A stretch of DNA of 21,107 bases from NCBI GenBank assembly GCA_026392015.1, contig JAPLCW010000146.1:1-21107 (forward strand). Direction: 5' to 3'. The DNA is from Candidatus Auribacterota bacterium (lineage in GTDB: Bacteria; Auribacterota; Tritonobacteria; UBA1439). Below, one piece after another: positions 1 to 16,817 of this stretch. The position numbers and the translations under genes were made by a program. The first letter of the stretch is position 1. Each line of letters starts with the position of its first letter. The notes under the pieces are model-generated. The model was not told the DNA's origin. It worked only from the letters and a program-made list of their open reading frames with translations, and ran no database searches.

Positions 1-446
1 TGCTGCAGCGGTACGGCTTGGTGCTTCCATCGACGCTTGCGACGGCGTAATGTCGCTGGGTTCAACCGCCGGATGCCGAAAACGGCACGTCCGGTGGTGT
101 GGGAGGGACTGCGGGCGAAATCCCGCAGCCCCGACCCGATCCATAATATGCTTTTCTGCAAGAGGTAACGATTGGATTCCTGCTGGAGTTTACCCTCGTG
201 AAAACGGGGACAGGAATGACTCGGAAAGCATGTAAATGTCTTTTAATTGGAAACGGGGGAAAGTCCTCCTCCCGCAACGGCGAATAATTGACTAAAACCT
301 TCACCCAGTAGGTGCGGCTGAGTTAAAAACAATAATTTTGCAGGGTCTTGATTTATCAAGCCCGCCAACGGGTCGGATAAAACCTGTCCTGAGCTTGCCG
401 AAGAATCCGACCCCTACATTATCCGCCATTCCGGGCTCCTCTTGTC

Positions 447-678: not shown

Positions 679-3246
679 ATGAAAGCATTAGGTGCGTGCT
701 GTTGGTTTATTGGGGTGGGGGCATTGTTTTCCGGATTGCCCATCAATGCCCATCTGGCGACCGCATCTTGTCCGATGTTCCACCGAGCTTCACGGCTCAC
801 CGACGTGAGCGCGCTGTATTCCGTGCCGTCGCAGGGAGATCTGCCCTTGAGCCACTCTATCGGGCGCGCCGCCGCATCTCTCCCGGCTGGGCCGAAGGCG
901 ATGGCGAAGCTCGCCCCCTGGGTGGTGGAGAATACAGAAGGCGGCGTAGAGGCCGAGTTTCTCGTCGTCCTCGCCGACCAGGCCGATCTCTCCGGGGCCG
1001 CTGATTTTTCGACCCGGGTCGAAAAGGGCATCTACGTGTTCGATACTCTCAGGGGAAAGGCGTATGCTACGCAGAAGGCTCTCCTCGACTGGCTCGCGGC
1101 GCGTGGGATCGAGCACCGCTCCTTTTACATCATCAATGCGGTCTGGGTGAAGGGGGATCGCGATATCGCCCTTGCCCTTGCCGGTCGCAGGGAGGTTTGG
1201 CGCATCGAGGGGAACCCCATGATCTATAACGACCTTCCCGCTCCCTCCGGGCGCAGTCAATCAAACAACCCTTCCGCCATCGAATCTAATATCACTTATG
1301 TCCGCGCCCCCGAGGTATGGGCGCTCGGACATACCGGGGAGGGGATCGTTGTGGGCGGCCAGGACACCGGATATCAATGGGATCATCCGGCACTGAAGGG
1401 TAAATATCGTGGATGGAACGGCTCATCTGCCGATCATGACTACAATTGGCATGACAGCATACACGCGGGGGGAGGGGTGTGCGGACCGAATTCGCCCGTT
1501 CCGTGCGATGATTACGGGCACGGTACGCATACAATGGGCACAGTCCTCGGCGATGACGGGGCGGGAAACCAGATCGGTATGGCGCCCGGCGCCAACTGGA
1601 TCGGGTGCAGGAACATGGACCAGGGCGCCGGGACCCCCGCCACATATATCGAGTGCTTCGAGTTCTTCCTTGCCCCGTATCCTGTGGGAGGAAGCCCTGC
1701 TCAGGGCGATCCATTGAAGGCGCCTGATGTGACGAACAACTCATGGGGCTGTCCGACGTCGGAAGGGTGCTCCTGGAACACGCTTCAGGCAGCCGTCGAA
1801 GCGCAGCGCGCCGCGGGCATCATGACGGTGGTATCGGTGGGAAATTATGGATCGTCCTGTTCCACGGTTCAGGATCCCCCCGCAATCTATGGTGCCTCCT
1901 ACTCGGTGGGCGCGCTGAACAAGGGGACGGATACGATCGCCTCTTTCAGCAGCCGGGGGCCGGTTACCGTGGACGGCAGCAATCGACGGAAACCGGATAT
2001 CTCGGCGCCCGGCACCAACATCCGTTCAAGCGTCCCTGGGGGTGGGTACGAGGGTGGATGGAGCGGCACCTCGATGGCGGGACCGCACGTTGCGGGTGCG
2101 GTGGCGCTCCTCTGGTCGGCGCGGCCGCTTGAGCTCAAGAACCAGATTGACTCGACCGAATATGTACTGGGCGAGTCGGCGACCCATATCTCATCTTCGG
2201 CTTGCTCGAGCAGCGGATGGCCGAACAATGTATTCGGCTATGGGCGCCTGGACGTAAGGGCGGCGATCGACCAGGAGACGCCGACAATGCCTCCTTCGCC
2301 CCAGATGTCTCCTACGTCGACACCTACGCCTACGGCTCCGGCGCCGACTGAGACGCCTATAGCGCCGGCAATAACGAGTATAACGCGCAATGAAGTTACA
2401 GGGGATATTATGATCTCCTGGACTGGCAGTTGCGATGTGGATATTTATTATGCAGTTGATTTGCAATCAGCATTTACGCTTGCGCAGAGCGGTGTCTTCG
2501 GAGGGTCATGGACAGATGATGGAATCCGAACCGGCGGACACCCGAATGGTGCGCGCGAGAGATATTACAAGATCGTCTGTGCCGGTACGTCACAGTACGC
2601 TTCGGATGCAGTGGGAATGTTCAGATATTCGCTCGCCTCAGGCTATAACTTGATATGTCTGCCGCTGATTCCCTACAACAGCGATATAGATGTGGTATTA
2701 GGGAGTCAACTGACGGAAGGGAGCCCTCTTACCGGAGACAAGATATACACACAGGATCCGAATTATGGGGATGAACTGCACTATGCGTATCTGTCTTCCA
2801 CATACCATGAATGGAAGGGCGCTTTAGATGAGGCGTCCGTTGTGCGGGAGAAAGGGTATCTCATGCAGATTGATGCGGGGCATACACGATTGACGCAATA
2901 TATCGTGGGGAAAGTACCTTCCGCGAGCGTGGGGATGCCTGAGTTTGCGATGGGTTATAATTTGATGGGGAACGTGTGGCCTGTCGATGTAACTTTTGAT
3001 GCGGGCAATTTGAAGGAGAGCGGGGCGAACGCGGGAAGTGCCCTGACAGGTGACCGTATCTATTCGCAGTCGAACAGCGGTTATGGCGGAAGCTTGGATT
3101 ACAGCTGGTTATCAAGCAGTGACGGATTGTGGCACGGCACGCTCACCGGGTTTGCGAGAGGCTACGGATGCTGGTATATCATCAACAGTGATAAGAGCCC
3201 ATTCAGCTGGGTGAATCTGAAGCTGTACAGCGAGCCGCCGTATTGA
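679..3246 (+). CDS. Secreted subtilisin-like serine protease (peptidase S8) with an I9-like propeptide, a Pro/Thr linker and a ~290-aa C-terminal domain of unknown family
   Basis: Catalytic-triad motifs are present: VGGQDTGY (Asp), HGTHTMGTV (His), GTSMAGPHVAGAVALL (Ser). The N-terminus has a hydrophobic signal-like segment. A PT-rich linker (PTMPPSPQMSPTSTPTPTAPAPTETP) lies at about 2281-2370. The stop is TGA. The start is uncertain (679, or an internal Met) because the spacing to a ribosome-binding site is poor. Confidence 0.88.
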   Translation: MKALGACCWFIGVGALFSGLPINAHLATASCPMFHRASRLTDVSALYSVPSQGDLPLSHSIGRAAASLPAGPKAMAKLAPWVVENTEGGVEAEFLVVLADQADLSGAADFSTRVEKGIYVFDTLRGKAYATQKALLDWLAARGIEHRSFYIINAVWVKGDRDIALALAGRREVWRIEGNPMIYNDLPAPSGRSQSNNPSAIESNITYVRAPEVWALGHTGEGIVVGGQDTGYQWDHPALKGKYRGWNGSSADHDYNWHDSIHAGGGVCGPNSPVPCDDYGHGTHTMGTVLGDDGAGNQIGMAPGANWIGCRNMDQGAGTPATYIECFEFFLAPYPVGGSPAQGDPLKAPDVTNNSWGCPTSEGCSWNTLQAAVEAQRAAGIMTVVSVGNYGSSCSTVQDPPAIYGASYSVGALNKGTDTIASFSSRGPVTVDGSNRRKPDISAPGTNIRSSVPGGGYEGGWSGTSMAGPHVAGAVALLWSARPLELKNQIDSTEYVLGESATHISSSACSSSGWPNNVFGYGRLDVRAAIDQETPTMPPSPQMSPTSTPTPTAPAPTETPIAPAITSITRNEVTGDIMISWTGSCDVDIYYAVDLQSAFTLAQSGVFGGSWTDDGIRTGGHPNGARERYYKIVCAGTSQYASDAVGMFRYSLASGYNLICLPLIPYNSDIDVVLGSQLTEGSPLTGDKIYTQDPNYGDELHYAYLSSTYHEWKGALDEASVVREKGYLMQIDAGHTRLTQYIVGKVPSASVGMPEFAMGYNLMGNVWPVDVTFDAGNLKESGANAGSALTGDRIYSQSNSGYGGSLDYSWLSSSDGLWHGTLTGFARGYGCWYIINSDKSPFSWVNLKLYSEPPY

Positions 3247-3335
3247 GCCAGTGGCATCGCACGTAACATCTTGAGATACAATCAAGTTTATAATAAGGCG
3301 CATTATAGTAAATGAATAATGGGGGAGAGTAACCG

Positions 3336-3946: not shown

Positions 3947-4780
3947 ATGAGAGCAACATTAGTGGTAGTTGCAAACGTGATGTTGATGGCGGGTTTGTGC
4001 GGCACGATGATAGCGGGGAGTATTGATTCACCCGGCGCGCCATCAGCGGGAAGCGGGATGTATACACTCTCTCAGATATATGATTACATGAACTCGGGGA
4101 TAGACGTAACACCTATACCAAGTTTCCAAGAACCCGCCGTGGCTCCCGGACCGACGATGAAGACCACGAAGCAGATTTACGAGGACATCAAGGCGAAATT
4201 TGCCCAGTGCAACGCGACTGCCGATGTTGTGATGCCGGGCTATACGTTTTTCTGCACGCAGCCGGGGAGTTGGGGAGTACAAACGGGAAACTATGTAACC
4301 CCAACCCCAACCTCAACGCCAACCCTAACCCCGACCATAACCCCCTCACCCACCCCAACTATAACTCCAACCTGCCCAACCGGTGACCCTTGGTATGTGC
4401 AATATGGACCGTGTGGGGAGGGTAAAGTGGTTCTGATAGGGAGCATGTACGTTGCCAAGTGGACAAATAATGAGGGCACCGCAAGCAACGAGAGAAAGGG
4501 TTGGCCCGCCGCCCGCCAATGGGCCACCGGACTAGACTGGTTAGGCAAGGACTCTGGATGGAGGCTTCCGACGGATATTGAAATAGCCTCCATATGTGAG
4601 GCCAAGTCTAGCCTGGGCGCGTACGAGGCTGAGACCCGCCCATATTACTGGTCCGACACCCAGCGCGACTCCGCGTCGGCCAACTGGATCGAGGACTTCT
4701 CTAGGCCTGTGGATTGCACCGTGCAGAGCGGCAACTGGGTCGACACTAACCGCGTGCGCGCCGTGCGTAATGCAATGTGA
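3947..4780 (+). CDS. Secreted modular paralog: N-module subtype II, PT linker, DUF1566/Lcl-C-terminal-like domain
   Basis: Signal peptide MRATLVVVANVMLMAGLCGTMIAG|S. Motifs GWRLPTDIEIASI..YYWSDT..VRAVRNAM. AAGGAGGG ribosome-binding site 6 nt upstream. Stop is TGA. Confidence 0.85.
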   Translation: MRATLVVVANVMLMAGLCGTMIAGSIDSPGAPSAGSGMYTLSQIYDYMNSGIDVTPIPSFQEPAVAPGPTMKTTKQIYEDIKAKFAQCNATADVVMPGYTFFCTQPGSWGVQTGNYVTPTPTSTPTLTPTITPSPTPTITPTCPTGDPWYVQYGPCGEGKVVLIGSMYVAKWTNNEGTASNERKGWPAARQWATGLDWLGKDSGWRLPTDIEIASICEAKSSLGAYEAETRPYYWSDTQRDSASANWIEDFSRPVDCTVQSGNWVDTNRVRAVRNAM

Positions 4781-4861
4781 ACAATTTGATCCATGCTGCC
4801 CTCGCGAAGGCGGCTGCAGCGGGTCAAGTTTGATTTCTCCGTTCGGTACGGCAGGTCGGCG

Positions 4862-4946
4862 GACGCGAAGCGCATGCCATCTGCGGAGATAACTCCGAAA
4901 TTTCTCTGGAGAAGATCCGTGATTTTATCGTAAACAAATAATGAGG
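4862..4946 (+). repeat. 'D' 3' element copy 1 (first hairpin degenerate; second hairpin and the ATTTTATCGTAAACAAATAATGAGG tail intact)
   Basis: Aligns to the consensus seen after each paralog. Confidence 0.6.
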
Positions 4947-5220
4947 AAAGAATAGAGCAGAATCAGGCAAATGATAAGGGCATATAAACGGAATAAGGCC
5001 GGGGCGATAGCATAATTTGCCGTCCATCTGAAATCATTGAGAAGGTACTAGACAAGATACACAAGGAGCTACAGAAGGCAGAGGTATGCTTCTGTGATAA
5101 GTGCCGTCCTTTGTTTCAGAAGTTTATCAAACGCTGGTTTAAGAGATACCCGGACAAGTAAGAGTTGGAAAGCCGGTTTATATATAAAGGGAAACAAGCA
5201 AACCAAAGGAGGGCGGAAAG
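4947..5220 (+). promoter_or_regulatory. 'U' 5' element copy 2 (small ORF lacks an ATG: ATA)
   Basis: Conserved sequence. TTTATATATA at 5177-5186. Ribosome-binding site AAGGAGGG at 5206-5213. Confidence 0.55.
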
Positions 5221-6033
5221 ATGAGAGCAACATTAGTGGTAATTTTAAGCGTGATGTTTGCGGCGGGTTTGTGCGGTACGGTGGTTGCGGGGAGTATTGA
5301 TTCACCCGGGTTGCCCACGGCGGGGAGCGGGATGTACACGCTCCAGAACCTGTATGACTACCTTACGAGCGGCACGGCGCTCATGGTGCAGACCAGTTTC
5401 CAGGAGCCCGCCTCGGGCCCCGGCTCGACGATGAAGAGCACGAAGGAGATCGGTGACGCGATCAAAGATAAGTTCAACCTGTGCGCTGCCACAACCGATA
5501 ATGTTGAACAGGGAGTGACTTTCTTCTGCACGCAGCCGGGAAGCTGGGGAGTTCAGACAGGAACATTAGTTGCGCTGCCGAGACCGACAGCAACCCCAAC
5601 CTCAACCGCAACCCCAACCGCAACCCCAACGCCGACGTGGGGCCAGACCAGATGCGAGGCGAAGGGCGGCTTGTGGGCACCGCTAAATGGCGGGCTAGTG
5701 GGGAATGGCTGCTGGTTCAAAGCGGCATTTCAGGAAAACTGCAGCGCGGCTTGTGGAGCCCTTACCCTAGGATGTGATACGAGACAGTGGAACGACAACG
5801 GGACTGTAACTTGCAGCATTATGAGGCAATTAGGGCCCAGTACTTGCTCATTCTGTCAGTCTGGGGGTTCTTCAATGGGCGACACATCATCTCCGGCGAT
5901 TGGGACGTCGTACTGGGAAGGGACTGGATGCATCTATCGGCCGGACTCAGTCAGCCAGGCATGCGATGCTACTATAAACACGAGTGACGCTAATTGGGGC
6001 AAACGGATCTGCGTCTGCAACCCTGAGCCGTAG
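5221..6033 (+). CDS. Secreted modular paralog: N-module subtype I, PT linker, Cys-rich C-terminal domain (type A)
   Basis: Signal peptide. SGMYTLQNLYDYLTSG..FFCTQPGSWGVQTG. (TPT)n linker. About 16 Cys in the C-terminal 130 aa. Stop is TAG. Confidence 0.85.
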   Translation: MRATLVVILSVMFAAGLCGTVVAGSIDSPGLPTAGSGMYTLQNLYDYLTSGTALMVQTSFQEPASGPGSTMKSTKEIGDAIKDKFNLCAATTDNVEQGVTFFCTQPGSWGVQTGTLVALPRPTATPTSTATPTATPTPTWGQTRCEAKGGLWAPLNGGLVGNGCWFKAAFQENCSAACGALTLGCDTRQWNDNGTVTCSIMRQLGPSTCSFCQSGGSSMGDTSSPAIGTSYWEGTGCIYRPDSVSQACDATINTSDANWGKRICVCNPEP

Positions 6034-6150
6034 ACTCTATCATCTGAATCATCCGCGGGTGGGCGGGCGCTATGCGCTTTCCCACCTGCGGAGATAACTC
6101 CGGATCTTCTCTGGAGAAGATCAGTGATTTTATCGTAAGTAAATAATAAG
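6034..6150 (+). repeat. 'D' 3' element copy 2: hairpin 1 (6053-6091, CCGCGGGTGGG..CCCACCTGCGG), hairpin 2 (6103-6122, GATCTTCTC-TG-GAGAAGATC), T-rich tail
   Basis: Perfect inverted repeats read directly from the sequence. Confidence 0.7.
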
Positions 6151-6258
6151 TTGGAGTAGGGCATAGCCAGAGAAGCAGGGAGAGTAAGATCAAGGCGAGG
6201 GCATAATTTTCGATGGTGGAATCAAGAGAGTGGGCTGTTGTTTACCGTAGCCGGGACT

Positions 6259-6284
6259 GTAGCCGATACTTAAGTATCGGCTAC
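6259..6284. repeat. Perfect 26-nt palindrome GTAGCCGATACTTAAGTATCGGCTAC in the spacer between D2 and U3
   Basis: The 11-nt arms are exact reverse complements around TTAA. A partial direct copy GTAGCCGGG lies just upstream. Confidence 0.6.
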
Positions 6285-6317
6285 AATATCTATCATAAAT
6301 CTTAAAAAGCCCACACT

Positions 6318-6541
6318 TTTTCTTGCATGATCTAATTTTCTGTCCGCCTAAAAGCATTGAGAAGGTACGAGACAAGATGCACAAGGAACCAGACAAGCTA
6401 GAGGCGTGCTTCTGTGATTAGTGCCATCCATTATTCCGCAGGTTTATCAAAAGCTGGTTTAAGAGATACCCGGACAAGTAGGAACTGGAAAGCCGGTTTA
6501 TATATTATAAGGAAACAATCAAACCAAAGGAGGGAATGAAG
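6318..6541 (+). promoter_or_regulatory. 'U' 5' element copy 3 (small ORF carries an in-frame TAG at 6419-6421, where other copies have AAG)
   Basis: Conserved sequence. TTTATATATTATAAGG box. Ribosome-binding site AAGGAGGGAATGAAG. Confidence 0.5.
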
Positions 6542-7345
6542 ATGAGAACAACATTAGTGGTAATTTTAAGTGTGATGTTAATGGCGGGTGTGTGCGGCAT
6601 GGTGGTTGCGGGGAGTATTGATTCCCCCGGCGCGCCTTCTGCGGGAAGCGGGATGTACACGCTCCAGAACCTGTATGATTACCTGACGAGCGGCACTGCG
6701 CTCACGGTGCAGACCAGTTTCCAGGAGCCCACGTCAGGTCCCGGCTCAACGATGAAAACCACAAAACAGATCGGGGATGCCATCGCAACATCATTTGCCT
6801 TGTGCGATGCGACTGCCGACAAAGTAGCGAGCGGCACGAGGTTCTTCAGCACGGTGCCGGGAAGCTGGGGTGTGCAGACGGGGACATTAGTTGTAGTGCC
6901 AACCCCAACCCCGACCATAACTCCCACCATAACCCCAACCCCGACCATAACCCCAACCGCAACGCCAACAGTCCCTGCATATTGTTCCTCCGCTAACGGC
7001 TACTGGGCCCCGAAGAATGATGGCTCGGGAGAGAGCGGGTGTTGGATTAAGGGGGCTGTCGCCACCAGCTGTAACACAGCGTGCAACTCAAAAGGGTTGA
7101 AATGCGACCAAGTGAATTTTAACGACCCCGAGTGTTCAATAATACCAAATATACCTGGAGCTTTTCCGTGCAGCACTTGCGGGGGGTCGCTGACATACGG
7201 CAACGCCGTGCAAGCGATCCAGGGGTGTGGAAGCTGTGGAGGGTCGGGGGCGTGTCGCGTGAATCCCGCCGGGACCGCGCAGGACTGTTCAGCAACCTTC
7301 ACCGACACTAACTGGTATCTGCTTTGCGTCTGTATTCCCAACTGA
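6542..7345 (+). CDS. Secreted modular paralog: N-module subtype I, PT linker, Cys-rich C-terminal domain (type A')
   Basis: The N-terminal 120 aa are about 85% identical to the 5221 gene and nearly identical to the 9104(-) gene. An alternative ATG lies at 6536. Stop is TGA. Confidence 0.85.
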   Translation: MRTTLVVILSVMLMAGVCGMVVAGSIDSPGAPSAGSGMYTLQNLYDYLTSGTALTVQTSFQEPTSGPGSTMKTTKQIGDAIATSFALCDATADKVASGTRFFSTVPGSWGVQTGTLVVVPTPTPTITPTITPTPTITPTATPTVPAYCSSANGYWAPKNDGSGESGCWIKGAVATSCNTACNSKGLKCDQVNFNDPECSIIPNIPGAFPCSTCGGSLTYGNAVQAIQGCGSCGGSGACRVNPAGTAQDCSATFTDTNWYLLCVCIPN

Positions 7346-7452
7346 CCAGATGATCATCCGCGGGTGGGAGGGCGTTGCGCGCCTTCCCACCTGCGGAGAT
7401 AACTCAGGATCTTCTCTGGAGAAGATAGGTGATTTTATCGCAAGCAATAATC
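7346..7452 (+). repeat. 'D' 3' element copy 3
   Basis: Both hairpins are present. The 3' flank GGAGTAGGGCATAGCCAGAGAAGC is shared with D2, which suggests recent duplication. Confidence 0.7.
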
Positions 7453-7881
7453 AATGGAAGTAGGGCATAGCCAGAGAAGCGAAGACCCTAAGCGAAGTCG
7501 AAGAGACCTTGTCGAAGTAAGGGCAAGGGTGGGGGGGCTCTATCCCCCAAGACTGACAGTAGTGACTCAATTTGGATGCCTTTGATTTGTAGAGGTTCGA
7601 CGAACTTGTCCTGAGAGAAGCCGAAGGATCAAGCCCCTACAACATAGAATAGTTATATTCTGTATGTAATAGAGACACTGCCAGACTGACCCAGTACCGC
7701 TATTCAGGACGCAGATGAACGCAGAGCACGCAGGTACAAAAATGGTTCGAAGTGAAAATCCCAAGTCTGAAAGCTGCTGTTTTGCTAATCTTAATCTGCG
7801 TTATCCGCGGAATCCGCGTCCCAATAAATTGGGCGGGAGTGGTGATTGGGCTATTTTGCACAATGAAAGGAAGGTGGCAAG

Positions 7882-8820
7882 ATGAAAAGGTTGATGACAG
7901 TAACGTTTGGTGTGATCCTTGCGTCAGGTGTGGGCGGGATGGCAGTCGGTGGGAACATTGACTCCTCTGGCGCGCCTTCATCGGGCAGCGGAATGTATTC
8001 GCTCTCTCAAATCTATGACTATCTGAACTCGGGGACAGCGGCAACCATTCCCGGAAGCTTTCAGGAACCCGGAGCAGCACCCAGTTCGACGCTGAAGACA
8101 ACGAAGGAAATCTACGACGACATCAAGGCGAAGTTGGACCTGTGCGCAACCACCACCGCAGCGCATGTGAAAGCGGGCCAGTTATTCTTCTGCACGCAGC
8201 CGGGGAGCTGGGGTGTCCAGACGGGAACGCTCATTGTACCGCCGACACCGACACCTACGATAACACCCACAATAACGCCATTGCCAATTCTCGCATCCTG
8301 TAAAGCCATTAAAACAGCGATTCCTGGAGCAGAAAGCGGAACCTATACCATTGACCCGGATGGTTCGGGAGGGAATGCCCCCTTCCAGGCTTACTGCGAC
8401 ATGACCTCTGATGGTGGAGGATGGACTCTGGTAGTCCGGGTGGTGAACGATAGAATCCACTGCAACTCATCTGCGGCCGGCACACTCACCTCGCAGACGC
8501 AGGCCAACTCTGCCAAATTATCGGATGCGGTCATTAACGAAATTTCGACCGACTACTACAGGTTTACATGCGGATCCGTTACCAACTGGTTCGATGCTAT
8601 TGAAAAGACATTCCAGGCCGATGGGACCGGCGATACGACTATCACAAAGGCAAAAGCGACCGGGATCGAGGGTACGTGGTGCTACGGCCCCACCGTAGCG
8701 AGCGAAGGGGGACTCCGCAACGCCGCATGTTCGCCGACAAGCGTTTATGGGCACGTATCACTCGGCGGATGCTATGATTCGACGATCTGGGGGGCATCGG
8801 GATATATGTTCGCGCGTTGA
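7882..8820 (+). CDS. Secreted modular paralog: N-module subtype II, PT linker, fibrinogen-related-domain (FReD)-like C-terminal domain
   Basis: SCKAIKTAIPGAESGTYTIDPDGSGGNAPFQAYCDMTSDGGGWTLVVR matches the signature of the N-terminal half of fibrinogen C-terminal domains. It has a different upstream region (no U element) with a GGAAGGTGG ribosome-binding site. Stop is TGA. Confidence 0.8.
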   Translation: MKRLMTVTFGVILASGVGGMAVGGNIDSSGAPSSGSGMYSLSQIYDYLNSGTAATIPGSFQEPGAAPSSTLKTTKEIYDDIKAKLDLCATTTAAHVKAGQLFFCTQPGSWGVQTGTLIVPPTPTPTITPTITPLPILASCKAIKTAIPGAESGTYTIDPDGSGGNAPFQAYCDMTSDGGGWTLVVRVVNDRIHCNSSAAGTLTSQTQANSAKLSDAVINEISTDYYRFTCGSVTNWFDAIEKTFQADGTGDTTITKAKATGIEGTWCYGPTVASEGGLRNAACSPTSVYGHVSLGGCYDSTIWGASGYMFAR

Positions 8821-8984
8821 AGCGGCGCGAGAGTTTGCCGTGTTTTCCCGGGTGAAGCGGGGGCGATAGCCGCGCGTCGGATAGAGGTGGCGAAAGGGCT
8901 ATTATCATGAAGGCGATCCCGCGATGCAGGATTGGCCTGCTATGCTAGCCGTCGCGGGTCAGGGCATGCGGTATCCTCATCGCT

Positions 8985-9093
8985 CCCTGCCATCGGCGGA
9001 TTTAACCTCGGATCTTCTTACGCGAAGACTCGGAGTTATCTCCACCGGTGGGAAAGCGCAGAGCGCCCGCCCACCTGCGGATAGTAGTCATAT
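8985..9093 (-). repeat. 'D' 3' element copy 4 in reverse orientation, downstream of the minus-strand paralog
   Basis: The reverse complement matches the D consensus, including both hairpins. Confidence 0.65.
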
Positions 9094-9103
9094 TGTGTTT
9101 CCT

Positions 9104-10048
9104 CTACCTCGTGTAAAGGTACCCATCCTGGTCACCCGCAATACCCGGTAATATGCATCCGAAATAATCATCATATGCCCCATATATAGTCTTTGCCCCG
9201 GTGCCCGGTTGCCCATTACTCGTGACAAGAGCGGTACAATTTGATGGGTGGCAGTTGGATTCCGTTACGAATTCCCCAGTATAGGTCGTTTTATATTTCA
9301 TGATACCTGCTGTGCAGATACTTGTCGCATTAAAATCTTTGCCCGCTGCATCGAAGTAACACGACTTTATAGTGGTGTTGCCGCACGATAAACGATAGAT
9401 TTCGCTAGATATAGCATTTATTGACGCGTCAGACAGTTTCGCCGTGTCCGCCTGATCTGGCGCAGTTAGAGTGCCCACCGATGCTGTATCTATGTGCAGC
9501 CTGTTAGTTCCCTTCATCCTGACGACCAATGTCCACCCGCCGCCGTCATTGGTCATGTCGCAGTAGGCCGAGAAGGGAGCATTCCCACCGGAACCATCGG
9601 GGTCAATGGTGTAGGTGCCGTTGCCTGCAGAAGGAGTGGCCGTAAGAATTGCTTTACAGGATGCGTAAATACCATATGGGGTTGGAGTTGGCGGTACAAC
9701 TAATGTTCCCGTCTGCACCCCCCATCTTCCCGGCACCGTGCTGAAGAACTTCGTGCCACTCGCTACTTTGTCGGCAGTCGCGTCGCACATGGCAAATGAC
9801 GTCGCGACGGCATCACCGATCTGTTTTGTGGTTCTCATCGTTGATCCGGGCCCTGACGTGGGCTCCTGGAAACTGGTCTGCACCGTGAGCGCGGTGCCGC
9901 TCGTCAGGAAATCGTACAGGTTCTGGAGCGTATACATCCCGCTCCCCGCCGAAGGGGCCCCCGGAGAGTCAAGGCTCCCGGCAACAGCCACGCATGACAG
10001 GCCAACCATAAAAATCAAACTCAGAGCTACTGTGATTAACTTTTTCAT
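9104..10048 (-). CDS. Secreted modular paralog (inverted orientation): N-module subtype I, PT linker, FReD-like C-terminal domain; mosaic of the 6542-type N-terminus and 7882-type C-terminus
   Basis: Start chosen at MKKLITVALSLIFMVGLSCVAVAG (AAAGGA ribosome-binding site). YTIDPDGSGGNAPFSAYCDMTNDGGGWTLVVRM. Stop is TAG. Confidence 0.8.
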   Translation of the reverse strand: MKKLITVALSLIFMVGLSCVAVAGSLDSPGAPSAGSGMYTLQNLYDFLTSGTALTVQTSFQEPTSGPGSTMRTTKQIGDAVATSFAMCDATADKVASGTKFFSTVPGRWGVQTGTLVVPPTPTPYGIYASCKAILTATPSAGNGTYTIDPDGSGGNAPFSAYCDMTNDGGGWTLVVRMKGTNRLHIDTASVGTLTAPDQADTAKLSDASINAISSEIYRLSCGNTTIKSCYFDAAGKDFNATSICTAGIMKYKTTYTGEFVTESNCHPSNCTALVTSNGQPGTGAKTIYGAYDDYFGCILPGIAGDQDGYLYTR

Positions 10049-10104
10049 TTTGGTACCAATCCTTTCTTGATTCATTTTGAATTTGATAAAAGCGCGATTG
10101 CCAC

Positions 10105-10121
10105 GTCCCGCTCAGCGGGAC
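10105..10121 (-). terminator. Hairpin GTCCCGC-TCA-GCGGGAC downstream of the 10146-10967(-) gene; on the minus strand it is followed by a ..GCGCTTTTATC T-run or TATA-like box
   Basis: 7-bp perfect stem. T-rich tract 13 nt downstream on the minus strand. Confidence 0.4.
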
Positions 10122-10145
10122 TACAGCACTCGCGATGCAAAAGGA

Positions 10146-10967
10146 TCAGATACCTACCGGCGGGGCGCGGATGGGAGAAAGTTTGGCAAGACTGCTTCTA
10201 TAAACCGGCATATCGCAACACCGGATACGTGCACAGGAATCATCTTTTCCAATCCTTGGCAAAAAGACTGTCCAGGCATCATTGTCATATCTCTCGTGGC
10301 TGTTGCTCATCCCTGTTACGGAAACACAGCCGCCGGATATTTCAGAATCATCCGCGCCGCCCGAAAGCCTGCTCCTTGATTCATCCCCGATCTCTTTCCA
10401 AGGACCGGGATCTGTTTTCGCGAGATACTGCACGGTCCGGCCGGGCCCGAAATGCATCCATCCTGCGTTCTCTCCCCACGCATAGCCGTCAAACTGGCCG
10501 GTCTCATCCAGGTATACTCGCGAATGACTTGTGCGGAAGCTGACCCAGCCCGTAACTTCGGACCAGGCAAATCCTGACAGCTTGCCATGTCCATCGTTGT
10601 TGACTCCCCAGTCAGAGGAGCCCCGGTTGGAGTAGTGTTCCCCGTTCAGAGGATGGCCTTCGCCGAGACTCACCCAGCCGCAGTTCTCAAGCCATATCCA
10701 CCCCACCAATATATTCGAGCCGATCTTTAAGTCTGCATGTGTCGTCCTGAGATTTACCCACCCTGCGTTCTCCCCCCAGATCACGTCATAACCCGCTACG
10801 ATTCTGCCAGTCTTCGGTATGGCAACACCCGATTGCGGAATGCTGTCACTTCTTTCCGAGTTGGGGAAGAATGGAAAATCATAGCACTGAGGAAAGGGAG
10901 GATGTGCGGGTATGGCATTGGCAGTGGAGGCTGCGAAGAGGGCTAAGGCAAAGATAATTAGAGTCAT
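10146..10967 (-). CDS. Secreted repeat protein with tandem ~25-30-aa repeats carrying a G-W-[VIM]-x-[LF] motif (GENAGWVNL, ENCGWVSLG, AWSEVTGWVSF, AWGENAGWMHFG); family not assigned
   Basis: N-terminal signal peptide MTLIIFALALFAASTANA. Internal repeats are visible in the translation. The overlapping plus-strand ORFs lack features. Confidence 0.65.
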   Translation of the reverse strand: MTLIIFALALFAASTANAIPAHPPFPQCYDFPFFPNSERSDSIPQSGVAIPKTGRIVAGYDVIWGENAGWVNLRTTHADLKIGSNILVGWIWLENCGWVSLGEGHPLNGEHYSNRGSSDWGVNNDGHGKLSGFAWSEVTGWVSFRTSHSRVYLDETGQFDGYAWGENAGWMHFGPGRTVQYLAKTDPGPWKEIGDESRSRLSGGADDSEISGGCVSVTGMSNSHERYDNDAWTVFLPRIGKDDSCARIRCCDMPVYRSSLAKLSPIRAPPVGI

Positions 10968-11236
10968 AATATTTCCCGCAGGGGTGATAAAATCAACACG
11001 ACTACAATAACCCTTGATACATATACCTGCATATTCTGTGCCAACTTTACAATTTTTCCTTCATTAGTGAAAAATAGTTGTAATTGCTACGAGGCGAAGT
11101 AGTTGCAACTATATGCGCAAAGATACAGATTTTAAATGCATCCTAAAAAGCCCAATCTGCATACTTAGTTTATACCTCCGAGAGCCAAAAGTGTAAACTT
11201 ACTTTATGTCCGCGCTTGTACATGTCCGCGCTTGTA

Positions 11237-11458
11237 TATTGTAATACCAGCTAAATTCTGCTATCATCGAGAAACGAGTAGCGGGTTATATCGAGGAGAG
11301 TGATCGCTTACATACAGATCCGAAAAAGCAAACCTTAGAAAACTTAGGGGCACAAAGCCACGGGTCTAAATCCCGCCGTAGCGGGACAAGATGGCCGGAC
11401 TGCCGAAGATCTCTAATGAGATAAGAGGTAGTTCGGCTTTTTTATAGTTGGGGAAGGA
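11237..11458 (+). promoter_or_regulatory. Conserved 'A' element copy 2 (see 447-675)
   Basis: About 80% identical to copy 1. Hairpin GCCGAAG..ATCTC-TAAT-GAGAT..TTCGGC followed by T6. Lies about 340 nt upstream of the 11798 gene. Confidence 0.4.
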
Positions 11459-11797
11459 TATACTCCTGTAGTGCGTTTCCGGGGTCAAATCTTTATCCTT
11501 GAATTTTAGAAGGCAGGACAGCTTTCCGGCAGTTTGATGTAAATTGATTCTGGCGCAAAGTGCTGGGTCAGCGTGAGAAAGAGTGTAGCTTAAGTTTGTG
11601 CTTCATACTATTCAAGCCGCGGAGGTACGGAAAGGGCGGGGATGCAACGTGACATTGTTATTGCATTCTTTGCGCTTGATTCTGGCTACCCCCTGCTTCT
11701 CGGGAGGCAGGTCGGGCAGGCCCAAAGGGCATGGTTTCTGCGGTGGAATATATCATTCACCACTATTGCGGCCAAAAGAGAAAGGAGAGTTGAAAAG

Positions 11798-12598
11798 ATG
11801 AAAAAGTTGATGACGTTAGTGTTAGCTTTGATGTTTGCGGTCGGCCTGGCCGGTATGGCCATAGCCGGCAGTCTTGATTCACCCGGCGCCCCATCAGGCG
11901 GAAGCGGTATGTATACGCTCTCGCAAGTATATGATTACTTGAACTCGGGAATAAAGGCAACACCTGTCTCCGGTTTTCAGGAACCCGGCGCAGCCCCTGG
12001 TCCGACGATGAAGAGCACAAGGGAGATCTACGAGAGCATCGAGGCCAAATTTGACCAGTGCCCCGCCACTACTGCTAATGTGGAGTCAGGAGTGAAGTTC
12101 TTCTGCCATGTATCGGGAAGATGGGGAGTGCAGACAGGAACCGGGTTAATGCAGCCAACCCCAACCATAACCCCAACCATAACCCAAACCCCAACCATAA
12201 CCCCAACACCAGCCCCAACCATGACCTCAACCCCATGGGGATATCCTGATGTAGTCGTGATAGGTGGTATGTATGTTGCGAGCGATAAGGATGGTCTTGG
12301 ATGTGCGGGAGGTGGATCGAAAAATTGGACTGAGGCCGCATCCTGGGCAGAGGGCTTGGAGTGGTTAGGGGCGACGGACTGGAGAATGCCTACTGGGGGT
12401 GCGGGAGGAGAGCTGTCGACGATATGTGAGTACAGAAGTAGTTTAGGATCTTATTATACAAACTATTATTGGTCTGCCACTGAACTTTCCACATCGCTTG
12501 CGTGGGCAGTTTATACCTCTGAGGATCAATGGATGTGTGTTGTCTTCAATAACGATAAAAACGGACCATACCATGTACGTGCGGTTCGTACCAGATAA
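11798..12598 (+). CDS. Secreted modular paralog: N-module subtype II, PT linker, DUF1566/Lcl-C-terminal-like domain
   Basis: The real start is at MKKLMTLVLALMFAVGLAGMAIAG (ribosome-binding site GAAAGGAGAG); the track ORF from 11642 is an upstream extension. DWRMPT..ELSTICE..YYWSATE..VRAVRTR. Stop is TAA. Confidence 0.85.
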   Translation: MKKLMTLVLALMFAVGLAGMAIAGSLDSPGAPSGGSGMYTLSQVYDYLNSGIKATPVSGFQEPGAAPGPTMKSTREIYESIEAKFDQCPATTANVESGVKFFCHVSGRWGVQTGTGLMQPTPTITPTITQTPTITPTPAPTMTSTPWGYPDVVVIGGMYVASDKDGLGCAGGGSKNWTEAASWAEGLEWLGATDWRMPTGGAGGELSTICEYRSSLGSYYTNYYWSATELSTSLAWAVYTSEDQWMCVVFNNDKNGPYHVRAVRTR

Positions 12599-12721
12599 TA
12601 GATCATGCGGATCAAATTCGCAGTCCTTCCCCAATGGGGATTCAGAATTTGTGCAAGTCATAACAATCATTCATTTTCAATTTATTTTTTGGGTTATGGT
12701 TATATTGCATGACAACATGAT

Positions 12722-12836
12722 TTGACTATCCGCAGTTGGGCGGGCGTTGCGCGCTTTCCCATCTGCGGAGATAACTCCGGATCTTCTCTGGAGAAGATCA
12801 GTGATTTTATGTAAGCAAATAATGAGTGGGAGTAAG
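12722..12836 (+). repeat. 'D' 3' element copy 5
   Basis: Both hairpins are present (CCGCAGTTGGG..CCCATCTGCGG shows G-T and T-G changes that keep pairing with wobbles). Confidence 0.7.
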
Positions 12837-12884
12837 GCGGTCTTGTGGTGAAAGTTGAGCTGAGTATCCGGGCGGCGGCGATTC

Positions 12885-13040
12885 CCGGCGATACGGAAAA
12901 GTCCGGGCTCACCCAATACAAGGTACCCCCCCGACCAAGTGGGGTATATGTAATATGACAACGGTGATATACACATACTCTCTTACTCAAACACCGGGGG
13001 CAAGGACAAAAGGTATGGGAAAAGGAAGTGATGCGATGAG
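12885..13040 (+). repeat. 'E' element copy 1 (~150-nt conserved non-coding repeat: ACGGAAAAG.CCGGGCTCACCCAATACAAGGTACCCCCCCGACCAAG.GGGGTATATGTAATATG.CAACGGTGATATACAC...CAGACACCGGGGG..GATGGACAAAAGGTA.TGGGAAAGGAAG)
   Basis: Three copies: here, 18005-18165 and 19245-19380. Confidence 0.5.
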
Positions 13041-13058
13041 CTATCCATTTCGCTCTGT

Positions 13059-13099
13059 CTCAGGATGGCCCCGCCATTCGGCGGGCCAAGGATCCTGAG
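13059..13099 (+). promoter_or_regulatory. Long imperfect hairpin (CTCAGGAT-GGCCCCGCC-ATTC-GGCGGGCC-AAGG-ATCCTGAG) abutting a TTTATATA box, upstream of the 13208 gene
   Basis: Reverse-complement arms read from the sequence. TTTATATA at 13100-13107. Confidence 0.4.
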
Positions 13100-13207
13100 T
13101 TTATATACACATGGGCACTCGTGTCCAATTAGTAATAAAGGATCACCGATAATTTGGACGGGAGTGGGAAACAGGCCGGATGCGCACAATGAGAGGAAGG
13201 TGGAAAG

Positions 13208-14236
13208 ATGAAAAGGTTGATGACGTTAGTGTTAGGTTTGCTGTTCGCGATTGGGTTGGGCGGAATGGCCGTTGCCGGGAGTATTGATTCAACGGGTGCT
13301 CCCTCATCAGGGAGCGGGATGTACACGCTCCAGAATCTGTATGACTATCTGACGAGCGGCGCGGCGCTGACGGTGCAGACAAGTTTCCAGGAGCCCACGT
13401 CAGGGCCCGGATCAACGATGAATAGCACGAAGGAGATCGGTGACACGATCGCGGGTAAGTTCAGCCAGTGCAATGTAACCGCTGCCCATGTTGAGTCAGG
13501 CTGGACGTTCTTCTGCACGCAGTCGGGAAGCTGGGGAGTGCAGACGGGTACCGGGTTAATGCAGCCAACCATAACCCCAACCCCAACCATAACCCCAACC
13601 CCAACCATAAATATCGCATCCTGTAAAACCATTAAAACTGCAATTCCTGCTTCAGTCGACGGCGTCTACACCATTGACCCCGATGGTCAGGGGGTCGGGA
13701 GTGATCCCTTCTCGGCCTACTGCGACATGACCACCGGCGGCGGCGGCTGGACCCTTGCCGCGTTTAGAGGTTCTGGCGTAACTAATGGTGACACTTTCTC
13801 TAAACATGGGGCAGTCGTGACTAATTTCGGGGAATCTCAGTCATCCGGAGATTGGTCACTCGATATATGCAACAACAAAATCAACGAAGGTGCCGACTAC
13901 AGCGAAATGGTAATAACTTCAGGTATAACAGAAAGCCATATTATAAATGGATTTACGTACGCATGGTTTTTCTCTTTTAATGGGACATACAAGATTAGCG
14001 TGGACTGGGGCACCATCAATGAAGTTGGGACTTACGGTTGGAAATGTAGCGCTGGCGAAGGGTATACATCATCGAGCGCATGGCATAGTGCGGCGAATAC
14101 CTGGAGAACCGATGCAGGGGGGGGGCAGTGGATTACGGGGATGGAGACTGGTACAGGAGGTATTCTGTATTGGACAGTTTGTAGTGGTGCGGCTCCTCAG
14201 GGTTGGGAGCATCCGGGATATTTCTGGGTTCGCTGA
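13208..14236 (+). CDS. Secreted modular paralog: N-module subtype I, PT linker, FReD-like C-terminal domain (longer C-terminal extension)
   Basis: SCKTIKTAIPASVDGVYTIDPDGQGVGSDPFSAYCDMTTGGGGWTLAAFR. GGAAGGTGG ribosome-binding site. Stop is TGA. Confidence 0.82.
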   Translation: MKRLMTLVLGLLFAIGLGGMAVAGSIDSTGAPSSGSGMYTLQNLYDYLTSGAALTVQTSFQEPTSGPGSTMNSTKEIGDTIAGKFSQCNVTAAHVESGWTFFCTQSGSWGVQTGTGLMQPTITPTPTITPTPTINIASCKTIKTAIPASVDGVYTIDPDGQGVGSDPFSAYCDMTTGGGGWTLAAFRGSGVTNGDTFSKHGAVVTNFGESQSSGDWSLDICNNKINEGADYSEMVITSGITESHIINGFTYAWFFSFNGTYKISVDWGTINEVGTYGWKCSAGEGYTSSSAWHSAANTWRTDAGGGQWITGMETGTGGILYWTVCSGAAPQGWEHPGYFWVR

Positions 14237-14237
14237 T

Positions 14238-14382
14238 ATGGCCGCAGATTTGATCCGTTTTAGCCGTTGCCGGCAAGGGAGTGCAGTTTTCGAATTGCTC
14301 CCTGTCGGCGTCGGAGATAACTCCGGATCTTCTCTGGAGAAGATCAGTGATTTTATCGTAAACAAATAATGAGGGAAGGATA
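14238..14382 (+). repeat. 'D' 3' element copy 6 (hairpin 1 diverged, hairpin 2 and tail intact)
   Basis: Alignment to the consensus. Confidence 0.6.
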
Positions 14383-14626
14383 GAGCAGGATCACGGAATA
14401 GTACAGGGGCGATAGCATAATTTGCCGTCCACCTGAAAACATTGAGAAGGCACTAGACAAGATGCACAAGGAGCTAGAGAATGCAGAGGTATGCTTCGGT
14501 GATAAGTGCCGTCCTTTGTTTCATAGGTTTATCAAACGCTGGTTTAAGAGATACCCGGACAAGTAGGAGTTGGAGAGCCGGTTTATATATTACAAGGAAA
14601 TAATCAAACCAAAGGGGGGAGTACAG
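14383..14626 (+). promoter_or_regulatory. 'U' 5' element copy 4 (small-ORF peptide NIEKALDKMHKELENAEVCFGDKCRPLFHRFIKRWFKRYPDK; no ATG)
   Basis: Conserved sequence. TTTATATATTACAAGG. Ribosome-binding site AAGGGGGG. Confidence 0.55.
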
Positions 14627-15625
14627 ATGAGAACAACATTAGTGGTGGTTGTAAGCGTGATGTTTGCGGTCGGCCTGAGCGGAATGGCAGTTGCCGGGAG
14701 CATGGATTCCCCCGGCGCCCCATCATTGGGAAGCGGGATGTACACGCTCCAGAACCTGTACGACTACCTGACGAGCGGCGACGCGCTCAGCGTTGCCGGA
14801 GATTTCCAGGAGCCGAGCGCAGCTCCGGGCTCAACGATGAAGAGCACAAAGGAGATCGGCGACGCGATCAAAGCGTTATTCGAGCAGTGCCCCGTCATGG
14901 CTGACAACGTTGAGTCGGGCGTAAAATTTTTCTGCACCCAGCCGGGAAGCTGGGGAGTGCGGACGGGGACATTGGTTGCGCTGCCGAGGCCGACAGCAAC
15001 ACCAACGGTAACGCCGACAGCAACGTGGGCCTGCGGATCAACATTTACGGATTCAAGGGACGGCAAAGTATACAGCACCGTCCTGATCGGATCCCAATGC
15101 TGGATGAAGCAGAACCTGAATGTGGGAACAAGAATTGACACGGCGACCGATCAAGGTACCAGTTGTTCTTCAATACAGAAGTACTGCCGTGATAACCTCG
15201 AATCCGGGTGCGAAACATATGGAGGTCATTACCAGATGCCACAGGCTATGTGTGGATCAACAGAACCAGGCACCCAGGGCATATGCTTCGATGGATGGCA
15301 TGTTGCTACAGAAGCTGAGTGGTGTACATTACTCCACAGTTTAGATTCCACAGTGGTGTGTGGTTCGTGGGAAGGTCGCATCGGTACTAATGTAGGTACT
15401 AAATTGATGTTGTCTGGCCCAAATGATTTCTCAGAGATACTAGCGGGGTTACGGATAGCGGGGGGCTCGTTCGTCAACCTGGGTTCGGGTTATTTTCCAA
15501 GTTCGAATTTAAGGGGGGACGGCATGCATCGGCACATCGAAAACGATCCCCCAACGGGAGCTAATGTAGGAATACAAACCTGCCCACTGTCATTTGGCGA
15601 ATCCATCAGATGCCTCAGGGACTGA
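14627..15625 (+). CDS. Secreted modular paralog: N-module subtype I, PT linker, Fibrobacter-succinogenes-major-paralogous (FISUMP)-like C-terminal domain
   Basis: CGSTFTDSRDGKVYSTVLIGSQCWMKQNLNVGT matches the characteristic FISUMP opening motif. Stop is TGA. Confidence 0.82.
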   Translation: MRTTLVVVVSVMFAVGLSGMAVAGSMDSPGAPSLGSGMYTLQNLYDYLTSGDALSVAGDFQEPSAAPGSTMKSTKEIGDAIKALFEQCPVMADNVESGVKFFCTQPGSWGVRTGTLVALPRPTATPTVTPTATWACGSTFTDSRDGKVYSTVLIGSQCWMKQNLNVGTRIDTATDQGTSCSSIQKYCRDNLESGCETYGGHYQMPQAMCGSTEPGTQGICFDGWHVATEAEWCTLLHSLDSTVVCGSWEGRIGTNVGTKLMLSGPNDFSEILAGLRIAGGSFVNLGSGYFPSSNLRGDGMHRHIENDPPTGANVGIQTCPLSFGESIRCLRD

Positions 15626-15636
15626 GATTCGACAAT

Positions 15637-15742
15637 TTGACTATCTGCGGGTGGGCGGGCGCTGTGCGCTTTCCCACCTGCGGCGATAACTCCGGATCTT
15701 CTCTGGAGAAGATCAGTGATTTTATCGTAAACAAATAATGAG
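15637..15742 (+). repeat. 'D' 3' element copy 7
   Basis: Both hairpins perfect. Confidence 0.7.
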
Positions 15743-16807: not shown

Positions 16808-16817
16808 CTGGCGTTTG

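Follow-up and report, generated by a model that had tools for sequence, protein, structure and literature searches.

The reverse transcriptases (RTs) of the UG4 class are described as small proteins of 278–347 amino acids (PMC2602772) that are found together with fimbrial genes in 66% of cases (PMC8934634), and they are reported to show no enrichment in defence islands and to be of unknown function (PMC9226505). In this work, we analysed a contig of 21,107 nucleotides (JAPLCW010000146.1, hereafter the window) from an uncultured bacterium of the PVC-group phylum Auribacterota, which bears an array of ten paralogous genes for lectin-like secreted proteins. Nearly all of these genes are followed by a conserved element with two hairpins, named here D. 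When compared with homologous contigs, D is recognizable as the inverted 3′ end of a UG4-class RT gene, comprising its last ~23 codons, the stop codon and about 10–20 nt beyond. It is a retained gene tail, not an integron-like site.

The RT from which D originates resembles the described UG4 enzymes in that it matches the RT_UG4 profile almost end to end and adjoins surface-protein genes, not defence contexts. It differs in its partner, here a family of lectin-like secreted proteins from an uncultured PVC phylum, and in the survival of the RT tail alone behind many genes. The UG4 passages of the three papers cited above mention no cis element or hairpin module. In a plasmid collection, a UG4 RT of Aeromonas is the last gene of a chaperone-usher fimbrial operon. 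On two Salmonella plasmids, a UG4-like RT gene overlaps a very large inverse-autotransporter adhesin gene tail-to-tail, by 19 nt in L019 (4935–6041/6023–10927; CP147853.1) and by 99 nt in L026 (3935–5053/4955–8864; NZ_CP019190.1). The second hairpin of D (hairpin 2) was not seen by eye at the equivalent codons of the Salmonella UG4 RT.

Results

D Matches the Antisense of the Last Codons of a UG4-Class RT Gene

The reverse complement of D encodes ...G/SSPEKIRSYLRRWESAQRPPTCG* (the asterisk marks a stop codon), i.e., the C-terminal tail and the stop of a UG4-class RT. The intact RT ends with ...LYEQGSSSEKIRSYLRRWESAQMPPTHG*, and the window consensus translated in the RT frame reads SSPEKIRSYLRRWESAQRPPTCG followed by a stop. 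When the window was searched by tblastn with the intact RT of 320 amino acids encoded in the related locus L005, the antisense strand of seven D copies was matched over residues 298–320 with 63–83% identity. A search for the reading frame itself found it, antisense to D, in seven of the nine D copies, including both copies of type B (see below), and gave nothing for the copies 7348–7435 and 15635–15722, which are matched by tblastn. Mapping of the codons onto D shows that hairpin 2 corresponds to G-S-S-x-E-K-I, the spacer GGAGATAACTCC to R-S-Y-L, the 3′ arm of hairpin 1 to R-R-W, and the 5′ arm of hairpin 1 to the last codons of the variable C-terminal tail, while the conserved GACTAT directly before hairpin 1 holds the RT stop codon.

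Among the PADLOC profiles, the L005 RT matched RT_UG4 with E = 4.4e-70 (residues 19–312 aligned to profile positions 11–299 of 307), the next class being UG17 with 1.4e-41; in Pfam it matched RVT_1 (E = 2e-23). The RTs of this clade comprise 313–332 amino acids with RVT_1 as the sole domain, and their genes neighbour those of secreted or surface proteins; no viral relatives were found in the RT alignment. The motif YEQG(S/A)..(I/L)R(S/T)Y(L/V)RRW is kept in RT homologs down to 31% identity, including homologs that do not adjoin genes of the secreted-protein family, thus indicating that the RT coding sequence is ancestral and that D was derived from the RT, not the reverse.

RT Genes and Their Remnants in Related Contigs

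The homologs were drawn from JGI and ENA metagenome contigs (loci L001–L017, L022 and L027), in addition to the two Salmonella plasmids. A first search pattern for D (GRTAACTC...AGAAGATNNGNG) gave no matches in genome or metagenome contigs, being too strict for the variants of L001–L003. A second pattern matched two metagenome contigs, L004 and L005, and found none in 185,579 species genomes and none in viral contigs. Related D elements stand behind family genes in L001–L004 and L013–L017. In L005 (identical to L006–L011; 24 contigs), D lies under the 3′ end of the opposite-strand RT open reading frame (ORF) of 320 codons. The arrangements around RT genes are given in Table 1. The locus L022 (2292–4404) is the sole one seen to have an intact RT beside intact family genes; its ~800 nt upstream of the RT are non-coding, with T-rich tandem repeats at 2247–2323.

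Beyond D, antisense RT stumps begin at residue 219 in L004 and at residue 269 in L013–L015, L016–L017 and L002/L001, and the window holds residues 298–320. In the window, homology to the RT ends at the base of hairpin 2 in all copies except the convergent pair 8939–9090, and at this junction the Gly codon of the RT has mostly become TGA, giving ...NH*SSPEKIRSY. With the same exception, the truncation junction ...GAGAAGATC/AGTGATT/TTATCG is identical behind type-A and type-B copies, and the sequence beyond the RT stumps is common to L013 and L016. These common junctions and flanks indicate that already-truncated units were duplicated, rather than that independent insertions took place.

Copies of D in the Window

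The whole window was scanned, with filters off, by means of a covariance model derived from 12 copies. This exhaustive scan revealed nine sense-oriented copies of D, eight of them strong (58–109 bits) and one degenerate (26.7 bits), the other matches being antisense echoes of the D palindromes. The conserved two-hairpin element of the original prediction is thus real, and the eight coordinates proposed there agree with the model. That it follows every paralog is nearly correct: the paralog 7882–8820 has only the degenerate, fused copy, and the truncated paralog 17392–17931 is the sole one for which the scan gave no D. In every copy, the orientation of D is that of the preceding gene, at a distance of 2–121 nt from the paralog stop codon. 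The hairpin-1 pattern CCGCAGGTGGG-N17-CCCACCTGCGG (up to three mismatches) gave 6 matches in the window vs. 0.00 expected, and the hairpin-2 pattern 9 vs. 0.78. Rfam 15 contains no family for D; at gathering score, the window matches c-di-GMP-I and a group II intron only, neither of them at D, and at E up to 1 D gives chance hairpin matches to mir-338 only.

Two copies of the element, the type-B copy 8939–9039 on the plus strand and the type-A copy 9003–9090 on the minus strand, are opposed and fused, so that hairpin 2 (9010–9031) is common to both. The fused pair lies between the convergent paralogs 7882–8820 and 9104–10075 and forms a near-palindrome of 148 nt (−63 kcal/mol); the antisense frame of the degenerate member reads ...IRRWQGAMRIPHALTRDG*. 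We also considered whether the minus-strand gene had been inverted through recombination at hairpin 2, and rejected this, as no lone hairpin 2 was found at the expected far junction. A deletion between two palindrome copies, behaving as direct repeats, explains the fused pair more simply.

Table 1. Coordinates of D, its parts and the paralog array in the window, and arrangement of RT genes in related loci.
Feature	Position or locus	Strand	Description
Ten-paralog secreted-protein array	3947–17931	both	D marks the 3′ end of the gene units
Focal D copy, type A	6043–6130	+	108.5 bits; 10 nt past the TAG stop (6031–6033) of paralog 5221–6033
Hairpin 1 of focal copy	6053–6091	+	outer stem CCGCGGGTGGG...CCCACCTGCGG, inner stem GGGCGC/GCGCUU, 3-nt loop
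Spacer of focal copy	6092–6101	+	AGATAACTCC; with the preceding GG forms the mini-palindrome GGAG-ATAA-CTCC; antisense, RT codons R-S-Y-L
Hairpin 2 of focal copy	6103–6122	+	GATCTTCTC-TG-GAGAAGATC; antisense, RT codons S-S-P-E-K-I
RT reading-frame remnant, focal copy	6049–6120	−	SSPEKIRSYLRRWESA*RPPTRG*; residues 298–320 and stop; internal stop; tblastn 83% over 23 amino acids
Outside D: start of the unit upstream of the next gene	6130–6150	+	TTATCGTAAGTAAATAATAAG
D copy, diverged type A	4841–4925	+	64.8 bits; 60 nt past the stop of paralog 3947–4780; weak fold
D copy, type A	7348–7435	+	101.9 bits; 2 nt past the stop of paralog 6536–7345
D copy, degenerate type B	8939–9039	+	26.7 bits; belongs to paralog 7882–8820
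D copy, type A	9003–9090	−	91.4 bits; 13 nt past the stop of minus-strand paralog 9104–10075
D copy, type A	12720–12807	+	108.3 bits; 121 nt past the stop of paralog 11642–12598
D copy, type-B hairpin 1	14254–14353	+	57.9 bits; behind paralog 13208–14236
D copy, type A	15635–15722	+	109 bits; 9 nt past the stop of paralog 14570–15625
D copy, type A	16821–16908	+	102.3 bits; 13 nt past the stop of paralog 15977–16807
Intact RT, 78% identical	L022		tail-to-tail with a family gene (N-terminal MYTLDDIYYYL..., DUF1566-like C-terminus); second family gene behind
RT truncated at residue 167	L012		tail-to-tail with a family gene
Intact RT, 45% identical	L027		tail-to-tail with a PEP-CTERM secreted-protein gene
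Intact RT	L005–L011		tail-to-tail with a gene for an unrelated secreted protein of 507 amino acids

Fold of the Element

Hairpin 1 had been described as an 11-bp stem around a 17-nt loop. In the fold prediction, this supposed loop pairs further: an inner stem of 6 bp, including two G-U pairs, extends hairpin 1 to ~18 bp with a 3-nt loop. The copy 7348–7435 has an 18-bp stem with zero mismatches and three G-U pairs. The T-rich tail, originally taken as part of D, has to be removed from it. Its motif (TTATCGTAAAC..., the last ~20–25 nt of the earlier consensus, TTATCGTAAACAAATAATGAG) also occurs free of hairpins at 3294–3326, 18997–19029 and 20880–20912, and we therefore assign it to the unit upstream of the next gene. 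For canonical copies, the folding energies range from −40 to −53 kcal/mol and the z-scores from −3.3 to −5.8; the focal copy gives −50.4 kcal/mol and z = −5.8 (117-nt stretch 6034–6150), and the structure of the copy 4841–4925 is non-significant (z = −0.4).

In two copies, 14254–14353 and 8939–9039, a different sequence occupies the place of hairpin 1 (type B). The former combines a type-B hairpin 1 (GCCGGCAAGGGAGTGCA...TGCTCCCTGTCGGC) with the standard spacer and the standard hairpin 2, and the type is also found in L016. A hairpin at or just past the RRW codons is in fact built from three unrelated sequences: the arms are CGCAGGTGGG/CCCACCTGCG in type A, GGCAGGGAGCA/TGCACTCCCTTGCC in type B, which encodes ...RRWQGA... 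like the RT P0128, and GAGAAGGTGG/CCTCCTTCTC in L022. Since, in addition, the position of hairpin 2 is kept across RT lineages, the two-hairpin layout is a trait of the gene tail of the RT clade. In the RT-less copies of the window, hairpin 1 comprises 18 bp, whereas that of the intact L005 RT gene has 11 bp interrupted by a mismatch and lacks the inner stem. The minimum free energy (MFE) in the window is −50.4 kcal/mol for the paralog-sense strand (117 nt, 6034–6150) vs. −41.2 kcal/mol for the antisense (88 nt, 6043–6130), the two stretches being unequal in length; for an identical 96 nt of L005, the values are −39.9 and −31.7 kcal/mol, respectively.

As to signals of transcription, hairpin 2 is A+U-rich, and a U4 begins 5 nt past its stem. 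A terminator scan flagged hairpin 2 together with GAUUUUAU in five copies, the overall number of matches being no higher than in shuffled sequences. A promoter scan found no promoter-like site within any D copy, and a sigma-70 promoter in the D tail was rejected by eye, the AATAAT having no −35 partner 17 nt upstream.

Conservation of the Hairpins

Hairpin 2 is found at matching positions of the codon alignment in five RT lineages: L005, L022, L012, L020 (42% identity) and L027 (45%). It bears double changes from T-A to C-G (L012, L020) and from T-A to G-C (L020, L027), plus single changes compatible with wobble pairing. Across these lineages, 86.3% of the hairpin-2 positions are paired, vs. 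38–62% in slid registers, and the covariation score is 0.188 vs. 0.130 in shuffles, of which 5/500 reached it. With as few as five lineages, the support for structural conservation of hairpin 2 is modest.

Within the window, the loop of hairpin 2 is invariant in six copies, and in a repeat-family comparison the D copies are 83–92% identical in sequence. Canonical copies diverge by ~16%, whereas the divergence at synonymous sites in the N-terminal domains of the paralogs is 54–57% (about one substitution per synonymous site), and the two measures are uncorrelated. For instance, the N-terminal domains are closest between the genes 6536 and 9104, whose D copies are only 72% identical, but distant between the genes 11642 and 14570, whose D copies are 92% identical. 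It follows that D is either constrained or homogenised.

Mosaic Paralogs and Exchange of C-Terminal Cassettes

The paralogs consist of a signal peptide, a conserved N-terminal domain of ~90 amino acids (GSxDSPGAPSAGSGMYTLQNLYDYL...WGVQTG), a Pro/Thr linker, for which repeats of the ACCCCAACC type code, and a C-terminal domain that differs between paralogs and may be Lcl_C/DUF1566, fibrinogen-like, Fib_succ_major or Cys-rich. In the source genome, this family has undergone a great expansion, its members numbering dozens of NTZ78 proteins spread over many contigs. A Pfam search was run on 10 of the 13 window ORFs of at least 170 amino acids, namely on seven paralogs, an S8 protease, an SPFH protein and an ORF without matches; the remaining three are paralogs by sequence. 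The last paralog (17143–17931) appears truncated or frameshifted: its DNA is similar to the N-terminal region from 17143–17201, its ORF begins at 17392, and it has no signal peptide.

The focal paralog 5221–6033 was compared with its relative in L003 (window 5644–6063 vs. L003 1240–1660). Starting where the Pro/Thr linker ends, the two are 88–100% identical up to the stop codon, and about 95% across the stop codon and the 5′ arm of hairpin 1; the N-terminal domains are 57–85% identical, the upstream sequences are unrelated, and the hairpin-2 variants differ (TCTGGA vs. GTGTAA on the loop side). The alignment thus identifies 5221–6033 as a mosaic, with one breakpoint at the Pro/Thr-linker repeats and the other inside D. 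Together with the single hairpin-2 junction found behind both types of hairpin 1, this mosaic shows at least one exchange between hairpins 1 and 2. On the evidence of these alignments, D and the linker repeats bracket an exchangeable C-terminal cassette, for which ordinary homologous recombination would be enough. No recombinase or integrase was found among the 13 window ORFs of at least 170 amino acids, in line with the original prediction that no integrase is present.

Other Features of the Window

Aptamers of the cyclic di-GMP (c-di-GMP) riboswitch class I were detected at 11317–11407 (57.6 bits, above gathering) and at 537–624 (31 bits, just below), with 87% identical DNA. The former lies upstream of the paralog 11642–12598 and the latter upstream of the S8 protease gene 679–3246 (855 amino acids); their positions suggest control of secreted or surface proteins by c-di-GMP. 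A group II intron (domain V/VI) matched at 64–140 (+) with 43.7 bits in Rfam, so the contig begins inside or just past an intron, whose RT class differs from that which gave rise to D.

Two kinds of upstream unit recur in the array. The "type a" unit (~14400–14566; also upstream of the genes 3947, 5221, 6536, 15977, ~17140 and 19545) holds a conserved small ORF, for example MHKELENAEVCFGDKCRPLFHRFIKRWFKRYPDK, with the longer consensus MIYRPSENIEKALDKMHKELEKAEVCFCDKCRPLFHRFIKRWFKRYPDK*, conserved at the codon level across 6–7 units; it also precedes the unrelated SPFH gene 19545–20483. The second, "type b" unit, also present in L002 and L003, includes a 91-nt repeat whose copies at 12884–12974 and 18005–18095 are 96% identical (CCCGGCGA.ACGGAAAAG.CCGGGCTCACCCAATACAAGGTACCCCCCCGACCAAG.GGGGTATATG...).

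Comparison with Diversity-Generating Retroelements

Diversity-generating retroelements (DGRs) provide a natural comparison. Lcl_C/DUF1566 and Fib_succ_major C-terminal domains are of the kinds used by DGR targets. As in DGRs, an RT is linked here to the 3′ end of ligand-binding surface-protein genes, with a G+C-rich hairpin just past the stop codon, where DGR target genes have an IMH and a downstream hairpin or cruciform. The assignment of the paralogs as DGR targets was nevertheless rejected, since no pair of template and variable repeats is present in the window or in the RT loci L006, L022, L027 and L019. The RT is also of the wrong class: the top 25 of its 81 PADLOC matches are UG/DRT, Cas-linked and generic RT profiles, although PADLOC may hold no DGR model. 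There is no DGR model among the eight RT matches in NCBIfam, and no Avd-like gene was called next to the RTs. Another difference is that the conserved element D is itself RT coding sequence.

Discussion

The explanation that we favour, with a probability of about 0.55, is that the RT-derived two-hairpin module is kept as a cis-acting 3′ boundary of each paralog unit, a function that we infer. In relatives of this bacterium, the RT gene stands tail-to-tail with a gene of this lectin-like secreted-protein family, its final codons being arranged so as to form both hairpins. The paralog family would have expanded as units carrying this tail-to-tail junction, and the redundant RT bodies would have been deleted from the 5′ side, which could have left the stumps at residues 167, 219 and 269 in other genomes and, in this contig, would have reached exactly the base of hairpin 2. 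The module may have been retained because it acts in cis where each paralog transcription unit ends, its likely role there being that of a stable 3′ stem-loop block, insulating tandem or convergent units or protecting the 3′ end. It might double as a conserved 3′ homology flank for the recombination of units or the exchange of cassettes, hairpin 1 travelling with the upstream C-terminal cassette and hairpin 2 with the downstream unit. Both a 3′-UTR structure and a boundary for cassette recombination, proposed originally for D, are compatible with our data. Just as intrinsic or bidirectional terminators and stabilisers of the repetitive extragenic palindromic (REP) type, D forms stable, gene-oriented stem-loops directly past stop codons, and the convergent pair 8939–9090 shares one of them. 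D differs from those elements in that its spacer and loops are conserved in sequence and its fixed two-hairpin layout comes from coding sequence. A REP system with its associated transposase (RAYT) is unlikely because D originates from an RT tail, and there is no IS200-like ORF among the window ORFs.

Several observations weigh against the retention of D as a 3′ boundary. Hairpin 1, unlike a terminator, has no U-tract, being followed by AGAUAACUCC, and the canonical terminators of this contig, found after both c-di-GMP riboswitches, consist of a long stem followed directly by U6, which D does not resemble. The terminator role suggested in the original prediction is weakened by these features and by the A+U-rich hairpin 2 with its spaced U4. 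In L022, a canonical bidirectional terminator lies between the paralog stop codon and hairpin 1, so that the hairpins are not required there for termination of the paralog transcript, and many family genes of related genomes do without D (e.g., L016 8549–10231 and L013 4034–6374). The two strands give mixed signals: in hairpin 1, the G-U pairs favour the paralog-sense strand, but in hairpin 2 they favour the RT-sense strand, and in L020, unlike in L005 and the window, the MFE favours the RT-sense strand. Within the array, the type-A copies are 87.7% paired, which equals the shuffle mean, with two double changes only and covariation not above that of shuffles; the G-U wobbles, previously taken to argue for selection, thus do not show it by themselves. 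Judged by the refuting condition named in the original prediction, the array taken alone carries no signal of covariation; compensatory changes are found across the RT lineages, in hairpin 2. Gene conversion or recent spread, rather than selection, could explain the high conservation of D.

The same evidence has to be weighed for other explanations. Hairpins conserved inside the RT frame, with compensatory changes across lineages of 42–78% identity, point to a function tied to the RT rather than to the neighbouring gene. It is accordingly conceivable, though rather unlikely, that the module is a cis site for a UG4-like RT, acting in cis or, here, in trans, which binds it in the 3′-terminal part of either the surface-protein mRNA or the RT mRNA itself. 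A further, similarly tentative step would have the RT copy into the C-terminal cassette and so feed cassette exchange, gene conversion or retro-duplication. The tail-to-tail position of the RT with surface- or secreted-protein genes in four independent contexts would fit such a site, as would the overlaps with adhesin genes on the two Salmonella plasmids, the place of the RT at the end of the Aeromonas fimbrial operon, and the association of UG4 RTs with fimbrial genes (66%) and not with defence that is reported in the passages cited above (PMC8934634, PMC9226505). The huge expansion of the family, the shuffling of its C-terminal domains and the unchanged hairpin-2 loop in six window copies are also consistent with it. 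Against it, no intact RT is present among the window ORFs, the window holding the last 23 RT codons only, none could be assigned to the source genome, and the RT loci examined contain no pair of template and target repeats. Moreover, D in the paralog transcripts is the complement of the RT mRNA tail, so that the loops of the two RNAs differ, and the family genes without D speak against it as well. A more doubtful extension is that the UG4 RT and the hairpin module make up an unrecognised retroelement system, in which binding of the hairpins would lead to cDNA of the ligand-binding cassette and to its exchange or duplication between the Pro/Thr-linker repeat and D; an RT encoded elsewhere might then use the RT-less copies of the array, in trans, as target or donor sites. 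About as doubtful as this is the notion that D has no function at all, being a hitch-hiking gene fragment whose copies are alike through recent unit duplication and gene conversion among tandem repeats. The lack of covariation above shuffles in the array would agree with a relic, as would the adjoining upstream unit, which is also highly similar between units (up to 88%), the decay of the copies 4841–4925 and 8939–9039, and the family genes elsewhere that do without D. A relic would hardly account for the fact that all RT stumps keep exactly the D piece and that the deletion in the window halts at the hairpin-2 base, nor for a divergence of ~16% vs. ~55% at synonymous sites, uncorrelated with N-terminal relatedness, nor for the stems of RT-less copies, which pair better than that of the intact L005 gene.

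The series of stumps also brings to mind a mobile retroelement resembling long and short interspersed nuclear elements (LINEs and SINEs), with the 3′ end of the RT mRNA primed at a target nick and the short copies, those of the window being the shortest, arising as abortive, 5′-truncated insertions. As with LINEs and SINEs, there are many short copies with a common RT-gene 3′ end and nested truncations (at residues 167, 219, 269 and 298); every stump follows a gene in antisense orientation, and at least two RT-tail lineages, types A and B, are present in one array. Mobility of this kind is nonetheless improbable. One truncation junction is found in both types, and the flanks beyond the stumps are common to L013 and L016, which points to duplicated units; the stop codon may be as near as 2 nt or as far as 121 nt, no target motif or target-site duplication is recognisable, profile searches found no endonuclease domain in the RT of 320 amino acids, there is no poly-A, and the host is a bacterium. 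Deletion combined with selection for the tail gives an equal series. Less probable still is a site-specific recombination site that delimits mobile cassettes, of the kind of the integron attC, whose resemblance was noted in the original prediction. Like attC, D stands at the 3′ end of each gene unit and is an imperfect palindrome that can fold as a single strand, and the palindromic hairpin 2 is the exact place where two convergent copies are fused. The resemblance does not go further: there is no integrase or other recombinase among the ORFs of at least 170 amino acids, no RYYYAAC/GTTRRRY core sites (R″/R′ or L) are visible in the aligned copies, the primary sequence is conserved and not only the structure, unlike in attC, and D is derived from a gene tail. 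The fusion is accounted for by deletion between palindrome copies, and no lone hairpin 2 stands at the other end of the putative inversion.

The origin of D bears on the biology of the UG4 RTs. These orphan enzymes, known only through their association with fimbriae and adhesins, gain a candidate cis element, namely the two hairpins in the gene tail, and the association of RT and adhesin is extended to a PVC-group lineage. The array represents a natural experiment, in which dozens of lectin-like surface-protein genes of an uncultured PVC-group bacterium keep the RT tail after the loss of the RT. For annotation, the lesson is that a conserved "non-coding 3′ element" can be the fossil of the last codons of a convergent gene, and that reading it in the sense of the preceding gene only hides its origin. 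If the reading as a retroelement system were true, it would be a second, non-mutagenic way of RT-driven adhesin diversification, distinct from DGRs, and would account for the association of UG4 RTs with fimbriae. The effect of the RT on its neighbouring gene becomes a testable question.

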